A stretch of DNA of 64,000 nt. Origin: Octopus vulgaris. Its lineage: Eukaryota. The notes under the pieces were generated by a model. It was given only the letters and a program-made list of their open reading frames with translations. It did no database searches and had not been told where the DNA came from. Position numbers and translations under genes: made by a program. The number at the start of each line of letters is the position of its first letter. The first letter of the stretch is position 1. The stretch covers positions 65,658,001 to 65,722,000 of the forward strand of contig OX597821.1 in assembly GCA_951406725.2 (NCBI GenBank), written 5' to 3'. This document shows positions 4,441 to 49,765 of the stretch, one piece after another.

Positions 4441-4450
4441 GTTATGTCAG

Positions 4451-4545
4451 GGCGGCGAGCTGGCAGAAACTTTAGCCCGCCGGGCGAAATGCGTAGCCGT
4501 ATTTCGTCTGCCGTTACGTTGTGAGTTCAAATTCCACCGAGGTCG
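4451..4545 (+). mobile_element. SINE family A, 5' part only
   Basis: GGCGGCGAGCTGGCAGAAAC..GAGTTCAAATTCC head; stops abruptly at the LINE junction. Confidence 0.9.
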
Positions 4546-6377
4546 GAGTGGAGAGAACGTGTCTCCCTGGAATATTCCTCTTCTAATGGGGATGGCTTTG
4601 ATTTTCACGAGTCCCTCTTTTGTTTGGAGCTGTAGCACTGTCTGCCATTTATTCATGGAGTGTTTTATGTATTTTATAATTGTTGGTTCTACCTTGTTAA
4701 TGGCTAGTGTTTCTAGGATCCACGTGGGGGGAATGCTATCAAACGCCTTTCGGTAGTCGATCCAGGCCATACTGGGGCCTTTCTTCTTTCTGCGGCTGTC
4801 TTCAGTTATGGCTTCATTGATCATTAGTTGATCTTTACAGCCATATGAGCCCTTGCAGCATCCCTTCTGCTTTTCTGGAAACAGGTTGTTTTCGTCCAGG
4901 TGCTTGTTCATTCTTTGCGATATTACTGCAGTAAGGGCTTCGTACATTGTAGGGAGACAGGTTATAGGTCTGTAGTTTTCTGGTTTTGCTGTCTCATTGG
5001 ATTTGGGAATTAAGATGGTTTTACCTTTCGTGAGCCATTCAGGCATTGTCTCTGGCTCTGCCAGTATGGCGTTAAAGTTTTCAGCCAGCTTTTTGTGCAT
5101 TCCTGTCAGATATTTCAACCAGAAGTTGGGGATCTTGTCGTGCCCAAGTGCCTTCTAGTTGCTTAGTCTTTGCAGTGCCTGGGTGACCTCTTCAGTTGTT
5201 ATGGGGGTCCAGAGTTGCTCAGGTGCTAAGTTTTCTGTTTTAATAGTCTTTTTCTGTGGTTGTTCATTTGCCGACCATATTTCTTTCCAGAATTCTTCCA
5301 CTTCTTCTGCCGTTGGTGCTGCAGTGATGTCTATTTTATTTTTGCCAAGTTCTTGGTAGAACTTTTTGAGGTTGGAGTTGAACTGTTTATTTTGTTCAAA
5401 GAAACGTTGGCGTTTCTCATACCGGCGGATCCTTTGTGCTTTGGCAAGGATATCTTGCTTTAACTTTTCTTTTATCTCAGGTAAATCTTTTTCTGTGATG
5501 TTGTACTTGCACAGTATTTTTGTTTTCTTTTTGTTGCTTAGTAGCGTTGATTGTCGACTAATTTCGTGAAGAATCGACAGATCTTTTCTCATTTTTTGTA
5601 TTTTGTTTTGGATGTTATTTATCCACAGGGTTTGTTTGAGTGGTGGTACTCCTGTTTGGATGGGTTGGAAGGAGTCTCCAGTTTCTTTTGTGGCGGCAGT
5701 GGTTGCTGCATATATTATTTCATTTAGCTCAGTGATATTGTTATTTGTTTCAATGGCTATTAATTCCGTGACGGCCAGGTTTATGCTATTTATTATTGAT
5801 GTTGTTTTGATGTCTATTTTGATTTTTGGGAGGTATGGTCGAGGGTCCATTCTGAGATCTGTGGTATTCTAGTTTTTTATAGTATCATAATCATTAGGTT
5901 CCCCTTCGTTGTTTCCAGGTTTTAGATGTGTTTCGTTTTCTTTCTCATTCGTATGTTTGTCTGTCTGTGGTGTTTTGTACATTATTTTGCTTCGCTACGG
6001 TCTGGGTTTGTTGTTTTTTGTTTACTTCGTTTTTGTTGGAAATGTTACGTTTGCTTTTACTATTTCAGTGTTTATATTATTTGGCATTGTTGTGTGGCTT
6101 CTATCTACATTTTCCTGATATATCTTTTCTTTTAAATGTTCTATTTCTATTTCTGATATTTTTTTGCGTTGAGAATATATCTTCGTATATTAGCTAGTTT
6201 ATTAGGGTTCATTGCTGTATCCAAGTCTTTATTTAGGTTATTTTTCTTCCATATTTTATATGTATATGTTGTTGTATTTTCGTTCTTTGGGTACAGCACT
6301 GCTGTAAAGTAAGCGTGTAGGATTGAAATATATTCCTCACGTGTCCATTTATGCCTATGGTTAGTCAAAACGTTCAA
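4546..6377 (-). mobile_element. R4/Dong-like non-LTR retrotransposon, N-terminal and RT portion (pseudogenised, 3' end missing)
   Basis: HRHKWTREEY N-terminus; AKAQRIRRYEKR; RT motifs YRPITCLPTMY, AWIDYRKAFDSIP, RRGIFQGDTFSPL; stops and frameshifts. Confidence 0.9.
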
Positions 6378-16544: not shown

Positions 16545-17032
16545 CGAGGTCGACTTTGCCTCTCATCCTTTCAGAGTCGATTAATTAAGTACCAGTTACG
16601 CACTGGGGTCGATATAATCGACTTAATCCGTTTGTCTGTCCTTGCCTGTCCTCTCTGTGTTTAGCCCCTTGTGGGTAGTAAAGAAATAGGTATTTCGTCT
16701 GCCGCTAAGTTCTGAATTTAAATTCCGCTGAGGTCGACTTTACCTTTCATCCTTTCGGGGACGATTAAATAAGTACCAGTTATGCACTGGGGTCGATATA
16801 ATCGACTTAATCCGTTTGTCTGTCCTTGCCTGTCCTCTCTTGTGGGTAGTAAAGAAATAGGTATTTCGTCTGTCTTTACGTTCTAAGTTCAAATTCCGCC
16901 GTGGTTGACTTTGCCTTTCATCCTTTTGAGCTCGATAAATTAAGAACCAGTTGCGTACTGGGGGTCAATCTAATCGAATGGCCCCCCCCTCTCCAAATAT
17001 TTCAGGCCTTGTGCCTAGAGTAGAAAAGAATA
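16545..17032 (+). mobile_element. SINE A trimer (body+tail A, body+tail A, body+tail B), 5'-truncated
   Basis: Units restart at GGTATTTCGTCTG directly after AAAGAAATA (about 16689 and 16860); the last unit ends CCTTGTGCCTAGAGTAGAAAAG. Confidence 0.88.
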
Positions 17033-24241: not shown

Positions 24242-24962
24242 GAGGCTCTAATCTTTGCTCCCCAAGAGCAAGAATTAAGAACAAATTACATCAAATACAG
24301 AATAGACAACGCATCATAAAGTGACATGTGCAGAATTTGTGGAGAAAATGGTGAAACTATATGGCATATTACTTGTCAATGTACGCCACTAGCCCAGAAG
24401 GAATATAAGAGACGTCATGACAATACAGCAAGGATTGTCCATTGGACACTTTGCAACAAGAGCAAAAGAGTGGTACGAACATAAACCCGAAGGCATCATC
24501 GAAAATGATAATGCAAAAATCCTATGGTATTTCATGACTGAGTGCGACCATGAGATAGAGAATAGGAAACCAGACATAGTATTAATTGAGAAAGAAAACA
24601 AACGATGCTCGATCATAGATAAAGCATGCCCGGCTGACAACAAGGTATGCGACAAGGAAGAAAGAAAAGTCGATAGATATGACAGGTTAGCTTGGGAGGT
24701 TAAGCAGTTGTGGTCGCTGAAAAAGGTGGTAGTGGTACCAATAACTGTCGGAGATCTGAGAACAGCGAGTAAAAATCTTGAGAAGTACATGGAACAAATA
24801 GGGAGGCCAATAAGGGTAGAGCACTTACAGTAAACAACACTGCTTGGAACCGCTCGAATATTCCGGATGGTGCTCGAAAACTAAGAGGTGTTACCTTAGT
24901 TCACTGGTAGTGAACAGCTGACACCGTTGTACATCTCCAGCGTTAGAAGCTGTACAAAGACA
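24242..24962 (+). mobile_element. Dong/R4-like LINE 3' end with CCHC and RLE domains in (TAA)n
   Basis: CRICGENGETIWHITCQC, KRRHD, KPDIVLIEK..IID..CP; TAA flanks. Confidence 0.9.
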
Positions 24963-29453: not shown

Positions 29454-29814
29454 CATTGAAATTGAGAAAATGTGGCATCTCAAGGCGGTTACAATACCAG
29501 TGATCGTAGGAGCACTAGGAATGATCAAGAAGGAACCGAAAATTATATGAGAATGATCCTGGCTTACCATCCCTGCAAGAAGTGCAAAAGATTGTCTTAA
29601 CTGGTACATCACACGTATTGAGAAGAGCATTGTCGATGTGAGAACTGTTGCTGCTCATGTATTTTAATTTAACTTTAAAAAAAAATTAAAAAAATGAACG
29701 AACTACTGAGTTTGGTTTAATGGCCTACCAATGTATGCTATGAGTTTCTTTGACCTAGGAGTCGGGAAGACACTCGGCAAGAAATGGAAGCAAATTTGAA
29801 AGAAGAAGAAAAAA

Positions 29815-29815
<1 letters not shown>
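29452..29815 (+). mobile_element. Dong/R4-like LINE 3' end (subfamily 3) in (TAA)n
   Basis: IEIEKMWHLKAVTIPVIVGALGMIKK plus 3' UTR; TAA flanks. Confidence 0.85.
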
Positions 29816-29846
<31 letters not shown>

Positions 29847-29849
<3 letters not shown>

Positions 29850-30953
29850 TCCAACCCCCAAAAACTCTACCAAGAACTTGGCAAAAATAAAATAGCAGAA
29901 GTGGAAGAATTTTGGAAAGAAATATGGTCGGCGAATGAACAACTTCAGAAAGGACTATTAAAACAACGAACTTAGCACCTGAGCAACTCTGGACCCCTAT
30001 AACAACTGAAGAGATCACCCAGGCACTGCAAAGTCTAAGCAACTGGAAGGAACCTGGGTACAAGTTCCCCAACTTCTGGCTAAAGTATCTGAAAGGAATA
30101 CACAAAAAGCTGGCTGAAAACTTTAGCGACATACTAGCAGAGCCAGAGACAATGCTTGAATGGCTCACGAAAGGGAAAAACAATCCTAATTCCCAAATCC
30201 AATCAAACGGCAAAACCAGAAAACTACAGCCTATAACCTGTCTCCCTACAATGTACAAAGCCTTTACTGCAGTAATATCGTAAAGATTGAGCAAGCATCT
30301 GGAAGAAAACAACCTGTTCCAGAAAAGCAGAAGGGATGCTGCAAGATCAGCTAATGATCAATAAAGCCATAACTGAAGACGGCCGCAGACAGAAGAAAGA
30401 CCTCAGTATGGCCTGGATCGACTACCGAAAAGCTTTTTATAGTATTCCCCACACGTGGATCCTCGAAACACTAGCCATCAACAAGGTAGCAACAATTATA
30501 AAATACATAAGACACTATATGAATAAATGACAGACACTGCTACACCTCCAAACAAAAGAGGGACTCGTGAAAACCAAAGCCATCCCTATTAGAAGAGGAA
30601 TATTCCAGGGAGACACGCTCTCTCCACTCATTTTCTGCTTGGCACTGACACCTCTATCTGATATGCTAAATAGAACTGGATGCGGATACAAATGTTACGG
30701 CAAAACAATCAGCCACCTTTTATATATGGATGACTTAAAACTATACGCTACAAATGACAAACAGCTGGAAACACTACTACAGACAGTACAGGGATTTACC
30801 AAAGAAATAGATGTGAAATTTGGATTAGAAAAATGCCCCATGCAACCCTGAAAAGAGGAAAACTAGTTAAGTGTAGTAACATCACACTAGATAAAGCCAA
30901 TGAAATAAGAGAATTAGACCAAAGCCAGACATACAAATATTTAGGAATCCATG
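29847..30953 (+). mobile_element. R4/Dong-like RT fragment, same family as 4546-6377
   Basis: EVEEFWKEIWSANEQ, AWIDYRKAF, QGDTLSPL, LLYMDDLKLYA, YKYLGI. Confidence 0.92.
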
Positions 30954-33799: not shown

Positions 33800-34347
33800 G
33801 TGGTGACACCGAGTCTGGTCCTTGACCATAGAACACTCAACCAAGATCCAGTTTCTACCGAGTCTGAACCAGTCAGTCAACTACCATCTCCGCCGCCGTC
33901 ATCATCATCGTTCAACAATTTTAGGTCGTCTCAAGCATTTGACAGCCATTCCATCGTCCACAGAAAATTTTACTTAAGCTGTTAGTGTGATCCTTGCACC
34001 AAGCATAACAGGCAGTCCAACTTAAGAATATACAGTTTAAAATACATAACATTAAAAAAAAATTTTCATATTAGCACACACACACACGACAAAAAAATAT
34101 TTTTTAGACGCGACGAAGGTTGGTAAATAAAAAAAAAAATTTTTTTATTCTCTGTGCATACAGTACAAAAAAACATATTTTTTTTGGTAAATTGTACACA
34201 TAGAACAAGTTTGTTGGTTTAATTGCTGGTCTTGTTTTAATTTCTATTTATTTTTGTTCCTTTTCCTTTTGCGTCAGTTCAACTTTCATTCGTTTTTATT
34301 TCCCCTTCCTTTGACAGACTCATTTATTAAAATTAAAAAACAACAAA

Positions 34348-34741
34348 ATGTCTCTGGCATCATTACCCATTTTCACAGGAGATGCAACACTTTGGTTTGC
34401 ACAACTGGAGGCATGTTTTTGTGCACATAGTGTTTCTCCTGAGCAGCAGTTGCAACTCCTTTATAGTTGTATACCTCCACAACATGCAACTACTGCCAGA
34501 GATCTTATTACAGATCCTTGTCCAGACGCCACTTATGGGTCTGTTAAGTTAGAAATTTTAAGAAGAAACACTAGAAGGGAGGAAAGTCGTTTCAACGAAC
34601 TGATGGCAGACGAAGAGTTAGGAGATAGAACTCCTTCAGAATTTTTGCGACGATTGAGAGAGTTAAGCGGTAAATCCGCTGACGGTCCTCTACGTCGAAA
34701 AATATTTTTTTCAAGGTTGCCTTCTAATATTCAAACTATTT
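34348..34741 (+). pseudogene. gag: Gypsy (CsRn1-clade-like) gag, truncated by repeat X
   Basis: LPIFTGDATLWFAQLEACF, ELGDRTPSEFLRRLRELSG, IFFSRLPSNIQTIL; lies downstream of the LTR and PBS. Confidence 0.85.
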
Positions 34742-34960
34742 TGTTTAAGGATGTTGAACGAACCGGTCATGTTTCCAAAGGTGAATTATCCAGACCTCCA
34801 AGAATTCCTTTCAACACACGGCTATGATGCCCCTCTCCACTACTTCTGCTCGTGATCAGAGATGCACATATCGTCAGCCACTGAGGGACATGCTCAACTG
34901 GTTAAGGTCAAACAACTGACAAGCACATCTGTGGTACTGAGCAGAATATTTGCTGTTGCC
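34742..34960 (-). mobile_element. Repeat X internal fragment
   Basis: Matches the reverse complement of about 28935-29152. Confidence 0.85.
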
Positions 34961-35533: not shown

Positions 35534-36285
35534 TTCTCTTTCTTTATTACCCACTAGGGGCGACACAGAGGGGACACCACAAAACATTGGGGACATAGAA
35601 CATTATAATTACTAGTATGGAGAATGAATTTTTAGAATGATAGTGATAATATGAAAGCGATGCTGACGGCCCCATCCGCCAGCATCACTTACCTGTCCTT
35701 CACCTATCATCTCCAATCAAAAGTCCCTCTTTTCTTATCACTTTCTCAAATATCCTTTCATACTCTTTTATCTTCTCATTCGAAAATTCCATCTCAATTG
35801 CTTATTATTATTATTATCATTATTATTATTATCATTATTAATATGATGATGAAGAGGACAAGGACAAAGATCATGATGATGTTGATGACGATGACGATGA
35901 TGATGATATAAAGCACGTGTTTGTCATGTATACAATACCGTTGATCACCATAATATGAGTTAGACATCGAACTATACAGCTATTCATTGACAAACGCATA
36001 CCTTGCGTCCGCGTCTCGCACGAACATATCCTTGTTCTGTTTTGGTGTTTTCGTGTTACATTCACGCACAAGATGAGTCACCTGACCGCTACAAAGCTGG
36101 TAATATGTTGTTTTTTTTTTTTCATTTTCTGAAACACGCGAAGCCTTTGTCAATTTTGTCTTTCATCCTTTTGAGGATCGATAAAATAAAGTACAAATCA
36201 AACACTGTTGTCGAGGGTATTGATTATCTCCATCCCACTAAGACCTCTGGCCTTATGCCTACATTACAAATCATCATCATCATCA

Positions 36286-43862: not shown

Positions 43863-44354
43863 TTCTGCTATTTTTTATTTATTATAAATCTTCCACTGAG
43901 GAGGGAACCGGTTTCCAACAAAGATACAAGGCTCCATCTTTGGGATGTAGTTAACACAGACAAATTCACATTTGGAACTTGAGAAAAGTCTTGCATATTT
44001 TTACTGTTCCACTCACAGATTGCACTTGTAATGTAAGAATCAGCCGGTCGATTTCTCTTTCTGAAAATCTCAGTTTATCCAGATTCTCCTTTAAGCATTT
44101 ACTAACACGAACTGCTGCTCCAGTTATCGGTATGAATATGAATTCATAGTCTGGATATGGAAACTGGAGGTTTCGAAGCAGTTGTCCATAGATATCCTCT
44201 TTTTCTTAGATTTTCAAAGAGATATTTATGTCTGCAGGGCAACTGACCTCTGTGATGGTGCATACCTTTACCCCTCTGTCTCAAACAATAATATCCGGCA
44301 TGTTATGTTTACATTTGACAGAAGCTTGATGGGAATATTCCACCAGTATTCGTT
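43863..44354 (-). mobile_element. RLE non-LTR retrotransposon 3' end embedded in (ATAC)n
   Basis: NEYWWNIPIK..KCKHNMPDIIV..TITEVSCPADINISL..YGQLLRNLQFPYPDYEFIFIPI, with frameshifts; (TATG)n on both sides. Confidence 0.8.
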
Positions 44355-44399: not shown

Positions 44400-44706
44400 A
44401 TATTCTTGGTTGCGGATATTTGTCCTCCGTCGTCAACCAGGAGAATTAATCTACGAAGCAATTTCCCAGCTCCCCTCCAGGGTTGGCGAAAGCGATGTGG
44501 TGGACAACGAAAAACCTGGCTGATGACAGTCAAGGCTGATCTGGAACCCAACCTAAGACCCCATATCTGCGGCATTCGCCGCTGGAATAAGGAGTGGTTG
44601 GAGATCATGCGGTCGTTAGCCTCAAATCGCCAGGCCTGGTCGGCGTTTGTGAGAGATGCAGCATTGAGGATGAATGAAGCCAGCTCAACCCACCCCGGGT
44701 GAATGC
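44400..44706 (+). mobile_element. RTE-clade LINE C-terminus
   Basis: GWRKRCGGQRKTWLMTVKADLEP..RWNKEWL..LASNRQAWSAFVRD..SSTHPG*. Confidence 0.82.
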
Positions 44707-45368
44707 TGTTTAGAAGAAAAAGAAGCGGAGACAAGATTGACCTGCCCGGAGTGTTGGTGGAGTTTGACGAACTGCCACCCGTAGTTGAATTCAGACTTGG
44801 AGCCTTTCATGAAGTATTAAAATGGAAAAAAAAAAGAGTAAGTAAAATTGCTCTGTTGAAAGAAAAAAAAGAAAAAGTAAAAGAGTTTCATGTAACAAAA
44901 AAGAGAAAAAGAAGATGATTAAGAAAAAACAGTAGAAAAATAGAACGATTGTAAATAGTGTGTATAAACGTTCAAATGGTAATGCATGGGGGTGGGGCCC
45001 ATGTGGCCATTTCCTTTCATTTTTATATAACATCTCATTCTTATTCGTTTTATGTTCTCATTGTGGTGTTGTGTCTGTCCTTGTAGTGTACCCGGCGAGC
45101 TGGCAGAAACGTTAGCACGCCGGGCGAAATGCGTAGCCGTATTTCGTCTGCCGTTACGTTCTGAGTTCAAATTCCGCCGAGGTCGACTTTGCCTTTCATC
45201 CTTTCGGGGTCGATAAATTAAGTACCAGTTACGCACTGGGGTCAATGTAATCGACTTAATCCGTTTGTCTGTCCTTGTTTGTCCCCTCTGTGTTTAGCCC
45301 CTTGTGGGTAGTAAAGAAATATGTAGTGTACCCCTCTGTGTTGTGGCCGTAGTGCCAAATAAAGAAAT
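44707..45368 (+). mobile_element. 3' part of a putative ORF1-only retroelement (copy 1) with nested SINE A
   Basis: GDKIDLPGVLVEFDELPPVVEF aligns with copy 2; 3' end TGTCTGTCCTTGT..CCCTCTGTGTT..AATAAAGAAATA. Confidence 0.65.
45094..45321 (+). mobile_element. SINE A with 12-bp TSD
   Basis: TGTAGTGTACCC at 45082-45093 and 45322-45333. Confidence 0.95.
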
Positions 45369-45960
45369 AAGTGTCTCCTTCTCTGTAGCGTCGAGTAGAG
45401 AATTTGGGGCGATTTGTTGTGTTTTGATTTCGCTCACATGTGAGTTGTTGCTGTGTTTGGTTGAATTGCTGAATTGTTGAAATTGTGATGTTGCATTTGT
45501 AACTTTTTGAATTCGTTGAAAATTTTGTGTGACTCCCCCATTTATGGGTGAAGCAGTAAATAACGAAAATATGCAGGCAGTTATGCGGCAGCTGAGCTAC
45601 TGCAGATACGCGAACTGGAAGTGAAGGATATGGACTATAAGATACCACCCAAGGAAGTGACAGAGAAGGCAAAGAGAATATAGCGACAAGGAAGGTGGAA
45701 ATAGCAGGCGTTGAAGAGATAGAGGAATGCTTAAAAGAAGTAGAAAATGTGAAGATATTTTATAACAGAGGACGAAAATATGGCCCGGTGGAGGTACGCT
45801 TCGTTAATGAGAACGAAGCAAAGATGTACTCCACCGTAGCCTTGAAATCAGCACAGTGGGCACTCTTCCCTACTTACTGTGGCAGACGCGCAGCCAGAAT
45901 GAGAATAGAGAGAGTGCCACCTGAAATAAACGAAGACTGGCTTGTGGCAGCCATCCTCTA

Positions 45961-46373
45961 GGATCTTTTCGGTTTGAACAGCAGTTTTTAACATAATTTC
46001 TAGGTAACTAAAAAATTTTAAACTTCGTATACTGGTAGAATGTGTTTATAAAACATCTTTTTCTCTTGGCTTTATTGAGAAAATACTATAGTTTGTAAGA
46101 TATTTGTTGTTTTTTTTCTTCAATTTCTGCAATTTCAACCAATCACTGACGTCTATTGAGGTAAAATAAACATTCTGTACCTATGGTCCCTCGTTTAAGA
46201 AACAGATTAGGTTTATTTACATTTGTGAAGAAAAAAATATACCCTTTCTCCCACCCCTAACCCTAACCCTAAAACAGATTGAAATGCAATAGATCGATAC
46301 TAGGGTCATAATTATGGGTGACAATTTCATATGACATCGCTAGAAAAAACTGCCGTTGAAACCGAAAAGATCC
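45961..46373. mobile_element. 413-bp MITE with GG..CC TIRs and 8-bp TSD (Merlin-like)
   Basis: TIR GGATCTTTTCGGTTTGAACAGCAGTTTTT and AAAAACTGCCGTTGAAACCGAAAAGATCC; TSD ATCCTCTA at 45953-45960 and 46374-46381. Confidence 0.92.
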
Positions 46374-47256
46374 ATCCTCTACAATACAGAGGAGAAAGTA
46401 GAGATATTGAAAATATCAAAGACAGCGGAGGTCAACTGGTGCGGGTATGGCCTAGAAGTGGTGGTACTTATCAGCCTGCCTGACCTCCACAAAATGATAG
46501 AAGAGATCGTCCTGCCCGATGAGACCAGACTGAGAGTCATGGTGGAGGGTAGACCCTCAATATGCTTCCAATGTGGAGTAAGGAGGCACGTAAAGGCAAG
46601 GTGTCCCCAGAAACACGAACAGGAGGTGGTGGAGAGGGAGCAAAAAAATGTAATAGCGGAGAAGGAAGTAGAGCTCACTGAGGTAGAGAAGAGAGGAAAT
46701 AGGGAGTCTCCATCGATAAAGAAAAAAGAAGCAGAGAAAAAGGAAACAAGAAAAAAATGAAGCAACGGGAGAACAAATACAAGGGTCGGAAGGAACTGGA
46801 AGATGAGATAGAAACACCAGCAATAAAGACAGAGAATGTTGAGAGAAGGCCGCGTAAAGGAAAACACGAAAGAATAATGGTGATGTACGAGGAAAGTGTA
46901 GAAATAGAAAAACGGATTGCAAAAATGAAAGGCGTAATAAAAGTGAGACTGGCAGATTAGGAGGAGAATCGAAACAAGAGAGCAGTGTTATTAGATGACG
47001 AAAAGGCAGCTAGACAGAAGGAGATATTTGGAAGGAGGATAGATAATACATCATTACGGTTTCAATACGATGAATTACCACCAGTGGTAAGTTTTGAAGA
47101 TCTAATGAATTTTCTGATATAAAAATGATACAAACTGAATTGTAAAAAACAGTAAAATGGAACTTTCTACTTTGGTGGGTTGAAAGCCATTTCATTATCA
47201 TAATTCTTCACAACTCATAACTCAATCGTTAATCGTTATATGTACCCCATATATAA

Positions 47257-47487
47257 GGCGGCGAGCTGGCAGAAACGTTAGCACGCCGGGCGAAATGCGT
47301 AGCCGTATTTCGTCTGCCGTTACGCTCTGAGTTCAAATTCCGCCGAGGTCGACTTTGCCTTTCATCCTTTCGGGGTCGATTAAATAAGCACCAGTTACGC
47401 ACTGGGGTCGATGTAATCAACTTAATCCGTGTGTCTCTCCTTGTTTGTGCCCTCTGTGTTTAGCCCCTTGTGGGTAGTAAAGAAATA
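47257..47487 (+). mobile_element. SINE A with 15-bp TSD
   Basis: GTTATATGTACCCCA at 47235-47249 and 47488-47502; 7 extra nt TATATAA at the 5' junction. Confidence 0.95.
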
Positions 47488-47849
47488 GTTATATGTACCC
47501 CACGTTTGTGTTGTCTGTCCATGTCGTGTCCTTTCTATATATATAAGGCCTTATGCCTACAATAAAGAAAAAGTGTCTCCTTCTCTGTATACATTTCAGG
47601 AGGTGGTTCAATATTGCGAAGTGCGAAATCGACGGGAACATTGTGACCACTTCTATGCTATAACCCCATTTTTCTCTCTCCGGCTTCCAGTCAGTTATTT
47701 ATCGAACATGTAGCCACGCACATCCTTTTTTTTTTATTTTATTTCTAACTCGCCATTCCTACCACCATTTCTTCCACTTTTCCTCTTTTTGGACTTTCCT
47801 TTCTATACGAACGAAGTGCTATACTCGAAAACATATTTTTATCTCTTTA

Positions 47850-49180: not shown

Positions 49181-49765
49181 GGCGGCGAGCTGGCAGAAAC
49201 GTTAGCACGCCGGACGAAATGCTTAGCGGTATTTCGTCTGCCGTTACGTTGAGTTCAAATTTCGCCGAGGTCGACTTTGCCTTTCATCATTTCGGGGTCG
49301 ATAAATTAAGTACCAGTTATGCACTGGAGTCGATGCAATCGACTTAATACCTATGTCTGTCCTTGTTTGTCCCCTCTGTGTTTAGCCCCTCGTGGGTAAT
49401 AAAGAAATAGGTATTTCGTCGGTCGTTACATTCTGAGTTCAAATTCCGCCGAGGTCGACTTTGCCTTTCATCCTTTCGGGGTCGATAAATTAAGTACCAG
49501 TTACGCACTGGGGTCGATATAATCGACTTAATCCGCTTGTTTGTCGTTGTTTGTCCTCTCTGTGTTTAGCTCCTTGTGAGTAGTACAGAAATAGGTATTT
49601 CGTCTGCCACTACGTTCTGAGTTCAAATTCCGCCGAGATCGACTTCGCCTTTCATCCTCTCAGGGTCGATAAATTAAGTACCAGTTGCGTACTGGGGTCG
49701 GTCTAATCGACTGGCCCCCCTCCCACCAAATTTCGAGCCTTGTGCCTAGAGTAGAAAAGATTATT
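49181..49765 (+). mobile_element. SINE A trimer (head, A, A, B)
   Basis: Units restart at GGTATTTCGTC after GAAATA (about 49410 and 49594); the last unit has tail B. Confidence 0.92.

Follow-up and report, generated by a model that had tools for sequence, protein, structure and literature searches.

A decayed, probably ORF1-only retroelement with a SINE-type tail in Octopus vulgaris

Element A and its upstream paralog

The 64-kb stretch of Octopus vulgaris DNA analyzed here (the window) contains on its forward strand a decayed retroelement-like unit, element A, which is flanked by a perfect 19-bp direct repeat (45369-45387 and 47571-47589) that we interpret as its target-site duplication (TSD). 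With up to three mismatches allowed, this 19-mer occurs only twice in the 64 kb (starts 45369 and 47571), where chance would yield a mean of 0.02 and none of 100 shuffles reached two. The span inside the repeats is 2,183 bp; once a MITE and a SINE are taken out, along with the 8-bp and 15-bp duplications that they respectively generated, 1,509 bp remain, in keeping with the preliminary description, which had proposed a unit of about 1.5 kb between 19-bp direct repeats. The unit comprises a GT-rich 5′ untranslated region (UTR) of 156 nt (45388-45543), multi-copy as judged from contigs with a variant base, one broken open reading frame (ORF; 45544-47122), and a 3′ UTR (47123-47570; 195 nt without the SINE) that ends in a SINE-type AATAAAGAAA tail. 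The 1,509-bp unit bounded by the 19-bp repeats leaves no room for a reverse transcriptase (RT) gene. Element A is the one TSD-bounded copy seen within the window.

The ORF1-like gene is decayed, with breaks near 45575, 45680, and 46757 and an in-frame stop at 46958-46960. It had been placed at about 45630 to 47122, of which the end stands and the start probably does not: a SYAAA motif lies upstream at about 45582 in the same frame, as in the N-termini of relatives, so that the ATG at 45630 is probably internal and the ORF, as read from these motifs, probably began near 45544. The frame is interrupted by the 413-bp MITE (45961-46373), whose 29-bp terminal inverted repeats are identical at 27 of 29 positions and which is flanked by 8-bp repeats at 45953-45960 and 46374-46381. 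On either side of this insertion, the frame lines up with uninterrupted relatives, which upholds the earlier proposal that removal of the MITE and one copy of its TSD restores the frame. Alignment to an intact relative (P0043) and its structural model places two RRM-like domains, split by the MITE, at 45680-46560 of the forward strand. They are followed by the CX2CX4HX4C zinc knuckle that had been reported for this ORF, here located at 46563-46604, and by a conserved C-terminal domain of about 88 residues at 46856-47116, all on the same strand.

Directly upstream, and also on the forward strand, lies the 3′ part of a second copy, paralog B. Its 5′-truncated ORF remnant (44707-44820) represents the end of the C-terminal domain, with a frameshift near 44790 and the ORF end at about 44820; scored with a profile of that domain, it was equaled by none of 1,000 shuffles. 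The 3′ UTR that follows (44821-45368) measures 308 nt without its SINE and ends in a AATAAAGAAA tail, and no ORF2 lies between stop and tail in either copy (195 nt in element A, 308 nt in paralog B). In the C-terminal block, paralog B and element A share 11 of 22 residues, and homology of their 3′ UTRs is evident from 92 identities over 119 aligned bases (0/1,000 Markov shuffles), as would be expected of the diverged paralog with a like tail that was originally described; the match between the two ORF ends at the DNA level is not significant (329/500 shuffles). The A and B subfamilies are thus both ordered as ORF stop, homologous UTR, and tail. A 5′ duplication of paralog B was not detectable in the window sequence.

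Missing from the preliminary account of the UTRs is that each holds a SINE with its own target duplication. The insertion in the B UTR (45093-45321, forward strand) carries a 12-bp duplication at 45082-45093 and 45322-45333, and the one in the A UTR (47250-47487, forward strand) a 15-bp duplication at 47235-47249 and 47488-47502; the two SINEs are identical at 220 of 229 bases. Contigs match parts of element A with no differences, and a contig under another organism label crosses the 5′ break of paralog B with one difference; hence these parts are not assembly artefacts.

Diverse octopod relatives and predicted folds

A phmmer search with the knuckle-containing piece matched 122 proteins, about a dozen of them multi-knuckle host proteins and the rest looking like family members. 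Because the protein library holds one representative per 50% cluster, these matches point to a highly diverse family. Octopod names are attached to 24 of the 30 relatives looked up (Octopus bimaculoides, O. sinensis, O. vulgaris, and Argonauta hians). From the matches, 38 of 122 were left out of the alignment A2 (the dozen or so host proteins, the rest short or chimeric), and 84 of its 87 rows were used for trees and identities. Median identity across these 84 rows, which are fragments, is 29% over 73 columns, and the tree places the window copy in a group with P0008, P0005, and P0003. The Cys and His ligands of the knuckle are retained in 61-76 of about 80 rows at this level of divergence, a sequence pattern that is suggestive of purifying selection on ORF1.

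The fold of the protein was predicted for P0043 (404 residues). In the AlphaFold2 model, residues 31-230 form a block with a pLDDT of 85-95, within which two alpha/beta domains are modeled, the first at about 60-142 and the second at about 142-225. A Foldseek search with this model retrieved tandem RRM proteins (seven matches at E ≤ 0.001; best E 2e-4, to IMP3 RRM12), and VIA-align gave Z scores up to 7.9 among RRM, ACT, and S6-like folds. Beyond the RRM-like pair come a single knuckle, a charged linker modeled as disordered, and finally the C-terminal domain of 88 residues. Folded alone, this last domain reached a pLDDT of 81 with a beta-alpha-beta-beta-alpha-beta arrangement, and its best structural match (Z 6.1, rmsd 3.2, 77 aligned residues) is a generic ferredoxin-like one that names no family; Foldseek returned no match to it at E ≤ 0.001. 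The folding of the N-terminal and C-terminal domains that had been proposed as a check therefore yields, as predictions, tandem RRM-like folds and a ferredoxin-like C-terminal domain.

A sequence search of the PDB returned knuckle proteins only. In the Atlas, the neighbors of the RRM-RRM-knuckle part include ZCCHC3-type (0.89) and DUF4283 clusters, both leads under the naming bar, and those of the N-terminal piece are unnamed clusters plus one DUF4780 lead under 0.9. The combination of RRM and CCHC domains is that of the type I LINE ORF1 (PMC5203782). The element A protein is accordingly predicted to be type I LINE ORF1-like, by modeled architecture and not by sequence homology to any named LINE.

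A common 3′ tail, element C, and head-to-tail copies

The last ~60 nt are common to element A, paralog B, and the abundant SINE (48 of 58 bases for B, 41 of 55 for A; each 0/1,000 shuffles), and about nine such tails occur in the window. The head and body of the SINE do not match A or B (97/1,000 and 440/1,000 shuffles). A common 3′ tail is described as the usual sign of a single LINE partner (PMC4824008, PMC5786205). Since they share this short tail, the element A family and the SINE are likely both copied by the enzyme of the same full-length retrotransposon.

A third relative, element C, lies on the reverse strand at 35539-35801. It is a 5′-truncated 3′ end that comprises a 33-codon coding end, a UTR, a strong hairpin, and the tail. 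Its UTR is homologous to those of B (105 of 137 bases) and A (66 of 82), each at 0/1,000 shuffles, and its tail is the closest to that of the SINE (39 of 43 aligned bases, 0/1,000 shuffles); with the tails removed, the match of C to A is not significant (156/1,000). The coding end was considered as a distant form of the C-terminal domain and rejected as such (HMM 680/1,000 shuffles, ungapped 263-617/1,000; paralog B as control 0/1,000), and Pfam gave no match to these 33 codons. Element C is a candidate for the autonomous partner; its coding end may derive from the partner's ORF2 or from a distant subfamily.

The hairpin is possible in all three copies (at about 47155-47192 in A and 44974-45012 in B), ending 117-125 nt before the 3′ end. 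In element C it is strong (z -5.4), whereas in A and B it does not reach significance (16/200 and 62/200 shuffles, respectively). For the tail, RNAalifold gave no compensatory pairs, and for the hairpin it gave a weak seven-pair consensus from an alignment that is poorly registered. An Rfam search returned nothing, and the tail pattern had no match in viral and prokaryote contigs. Neighboring fragments in the window are labeled RTE-like and RLE-like.

Element A sits exactly at the tail of paralog B, and the A and B UTRs have each been hit by a SINE carrying that same tail, a coincidence noticed after the fact. Similar pairings appear among annotated proteins: P0010 and P0053 (both from O. bimaculoides) and P0011 are gene models that splice together two different subfamilies in the same orientation. 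Past the B-type ORF end of P0010, the residues match the translated B UTR (52% over 60 residues). Its A part is 60% identical to P0012 and 44-47% identical to the window copy; being nearer to P0012, it probably does not stem from the window locus. These observations suggest that copies pile up head-to-tail, and would be explained by a putative insertion preference for the family's own 3′ ends. In the Tx1-driven SINEU-3, tandem insertions that sandwich a target duplication have been reported (PMC4494074).

Alternatively, B and A could be parts of a single composite element that carries two ORF1-like genes, the 19-bp repeat then being a terminal motif or a fixed target. Each 19-mer does come after a AATAAAGAAA tail, and P0010 keeps the order of a B-type end followed by an A-type ORF. 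The two 19-mers are, however, identical, whereas the UTRs are only 77% alike, and the tail of element C comes without the 19-mer. Nor is the pairing fixed: P0012 (60%) is a closer relative of the A-type portion of P0010 than the window copy is (44-47%), and P0053 and P0011 combine other subfamilies. We consider a composite element quite improbable.

Copies, origin, and known ORF1-only systems

To gauge the wider population of copies, Logan contigs from runs X1 and X7 were placed on the locus at 80% likeness; the number of contigs only approximates that of copies. A variant base was carried by 26 and 21 contigs (X1 and X7, respectively) at 45825, 27 and 39 at 46590, 9 and 10 in the 5′ UTR at 45529/45535, 5 and 7 in the A UTR at 47181, and 29 and 44 in the B UTR at 44982. 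Two of the 16 contig pieces listed (of more than 470,000) are diverged copies in which the ORF stop is followed by this UTR (records 14 and 16 of X7, which differ at 41 and 32 letters), and none of these 16 shows the ORF end running into other sequence. The tables of contig joints and loose ends are dominated by the SINE and the MITE, and copies that continue into an ORF2 could hide there. Dozens of contigs represent other copies, and two of those listed cross the stop into the UTR, which makes a one-off deletion unlikely. The family is multi-copy and old, and the earlier view of an old, diversified family is borne out by relatives in three Octopus species and Argonauta at 29% median identity.

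Summed contig depth relative to single-copy sequence, which is not a copy number, is 27-40x over the core and 6-16x over the C-terminal domain, a fall that fits either faster divergence of this domain or relatives with other 3′ parts. Raw runs X22 and X23 showed zero depth both over the conserved ORF bins and over the single-copy bin. The short-type relatives P0003, P0010, P0015, P0043, and P0053 stop 8-10 residues past the C-terminal domain, and the intact longer relatives P0028, P0052, and P0079 (527-623 residues) may represent the ORF1 of ordinary LINEs with two ORFs. The 87 alignment members, 35 further proteins, and 17 scanned proteins have no RT or endonuclease family listed, which counts for little, given that a LINE encodes these activities in a separate ORF2. 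Word-index protein searches gave weak negatives: nothing above 222 residues with the knuckle piece, four matches with the alignment, and no fused long form at 1092-3115 residues. A metagenome scan yielded two loci, of which L001 was rejected as a relative (a chance peptide match in an unrelated ORF) and L002 has match statistics equal to those of L001.

Longer intact relatives and the falling depth over the 3′ part would also be compatible with the copies being internal-deletion accidents of a two-ORF L1-Tx1 element, in which ORF1 became linked to the 3′ UTR either once the element had inserted or in the course of a single reverse transcription, without any ORF1-only lineage. Autonomous L1-Tx1 families are present in O. 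vulgaris (PMC13282606), and element C has the same UTR behind a different coding end. Against this, A and B, which are 50% alike in their last block, both join an intact ORF end to the UTR, two further diverged copies have the same ORF-UTR junction, and P0010 of O. bimaculoides passes from a B-type ORF end into UTR-like residues. We regard such deletion accidents as unlikely.

It is very improbable, in our assessment, that the copies instead stem from a host gene family domesticated from an ORF1 (ZCCHC3- or L1TD1-like) and are processed pseudogenes that LINEs copied passively. Such an origin would suit the ZCCHC3-type Atlas clusters (at 0.89, a lead only), the annotation of some members as genes, and the AATAAA signal at the end. 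The end is, however, a SINE-type structured tail with no poly(A) run at the 3′ junction, and there are many deep subfamilies. Moreover, the annotated members consist mostly of fragments and chimeric models, among them one that is fused into an RGS gene, and no conserved single parent stands out among the matches.

We consider it probable that element A is a dead copy of an old, multi-copy, ORF1-only element that borrowed a tail-recognizing RT from a full-length LINE, which supports the preliminary interpretation. An RNA consisting of 5′ UTR, ORF, 3′ UTR, and tail would serve as template for a protein in which two RRM-like domains precede the knuckle and the C-terminal alpha/beta domain (this order is observed, and the folds are predicted), and this ORF1-like protein would bind and coat its own RNA in cis, by the precedent of HAL1 and HeT-A. 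The ORF2 protein of an autonomous LINE, most likely L1-Tx1, would recognize a conserved stretch of ~150 nt at the 3′ end, made up of the hairpin and the ~60-nt tail, and carry out target-primed reverse transcription, giving rise to the 19-bp duplication. New insertions would favor sites at or within the 3′ ends of relatives, producing head-to-tail clusters. After its insertion, element A gained the MITE, the SINE, three frame breaks, and one stop.

The element displays L1-Tx1 traits, namely a type I ORF1 (RRM + CCHC) and target duplications, which are not exclusive to Tx1. Type I ORF1 is also found in other clades. L1-Tx1 is the likeliest RT donor on the basis of the type I ORF1, the long duplications, and the 13 L1-Tx1 families reported as recently active in O. 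vulgaris (PMC13282606). In non-mammalian animals, type I ORF1 has been linked to Tx1 (PMC5203782), and Tx1-driven elements favor particular repeats and form tandems around a TSD (PMC4494074). The octopus element resembles Tx1-clade LINEs and the crocodilian SINEU in its type I ORF1 and, apparently, in tandems that sandwich a TSD; it differs in having no ORF2 and in its apparent target, putatively the family's own 3′ end.

ORF1-only LINE derivatives are known from L1 (HAL1), Jockey (HeT-A), and CR1 (Ag-Sponge) (PMC5786205). HAL1 of mammals encodes ORF1p only, is non-autonomous, arose several times, and has long kept its coding capacity (PMC5753468, PMC3627910), a layout shared by the octopus element. 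Mammalian L1 ORF1p is, however, type II, with a coiled coil, one RRM, and a CTD (PMC5203782), whereas the octopus element combines a predicted pair of RRMs and a CCHC knuckle with an alpha/beta domain that stands apart at the C-terminus, is molluscan, and ends in a specific SINE-type tail. Transposase_22, the type II ORF1p of HAL1 proper, is not listed in the Pfam scans of members. The label "HAL1-like" in the preliminary description is hence fair as an analogy; by its modeled ORF1 type (RRM + CCHC), the octopus element is not HAL1 proper. HeT-A, other telomeric Jockey elements, and Ag-Sponge are ORF1-only derivatives found in head-to-tail arrays, and such lineages can found new ones (PMC5786205, PMC13534243). 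The octopus element appears to share the ORF1-only derivation and the head-to-tail arrangement, but it shows no sign of a telomere location, has a much shorter unit and UTR and a single knuckle, and is interspersed with target duplications. The ZCCHC3 RNA-binding domains and the DUF4283 plant L1 ORF1 are neighbors by feature and structure, as leads only, and no Pfam match to either family is found among the octopus members listed.

In the literature searched, we found no description of such an octopus ORF1-only family, and the terms HAL1, ORF1, and non-autonomous do not occur in the supplement of PMC13282606. A consensus may exist under another label in Repbase, in Dfam, or in the Zenodo library that accompanies PMC13282606. 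More speculatively, the locus might reflect an octopod three-party system built on one 3′ RNA module, comprising a LINE of the element C type, the major SINE, and an ORF1-only radiation with an extra C-terminal domain that predates the Octopus-Argonauta split; its self-targeting into non-telomeric head-to-tail arrays would be HeT-A-like and have arisen independently in a mollusc. We put this forward tentatively, as a possibility that we judge less likely than its negation.

If the ORF1-only reading is true, a diversified type I case in a mollusc would add an independent origin to those known. A SINE without a protein and an ORF1-only element would then be using the same tail and the same RT, and comparing them would therefore provide a direct test of the benefit of ORF1 in cis. 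The tail would also offer a handle for finding the LINE partner of the abundant octopus SINE. Many octopus gene models annotated as "CCHC-type domain" or uncharacterized proteins are likely fragments or chimeras of this ORF1-only element.

Insertions and tandem SINE units

The high-copy MITE that lies within element A, a decayed copy of the probably ORF1-only retroelement, occupies 45961-46373 and is characterized by GG...CC ends, an 8-bp duplication, and internal CCCTAA repeats. In the UTR of the same copy, an 11-nt sequence at the joint where the second SINE begins (47249-47259) recurs at 47539-47549, in the UTR approximately 35 nt beyond the insertion site, and this repeat possibly represents microhomology at the 5' joint of the SINE.

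SINE units are also arranged in tandem, with a spacing of 184 bp at 49183-49712 and a shorter spacing at 16545-16977. Later units begin at SINE position 47, and the tail of the last unit differs. The 184-bp joint was found again in 15-18 contigs.

LINE-like and gag-like sequences

Directly abutting the 5' break of paralog B, the truncated relative upstream of element A, is a plus-strand coding remnant (about 44420-44706) of very high contig depth, which we take to resemble the 3' end of an RTE LINE. A decayed ORF end on the minus strand (43966-44340) presumably resembles the restriction-like endonuclease domain of R2/R4/Dong-type LINEs; a Pfam search of this ORF end returned no match. Further retroelement-like fragments, drawn from ORFs of at least 150 aa, are located at 4447-5868, 24389-24880, and 29755-30357 (minus) and at 34315-34827 (plus), and we assume these to be LINE RT-like regions and one gag-like ORF.

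Relatives of the ORF1-like protein and a candidate partner

Among the protein relatives of element A, P0032 is an RGS gene model into which ORF1-like family sequence is spliced. For P0026 and P0046, the O. vulgaris accession numbers differ by 25 and the longest contigs are of equal size, hinting that the two sit in one local cluster.

Element C (35539-35801, minus) is a 5'-truncated element end inside an (AAT)n tract, combining the UTR seen in element A and paralog B with a SINE-like tail. Its hairpin is strong (z -5.4), and its coding end comprises 33 codons that matched neither Pfam nor the C-terminal domain of the ORF1-like family. This element is a candidate for the autonomous partner of the probable ORF1-only family.
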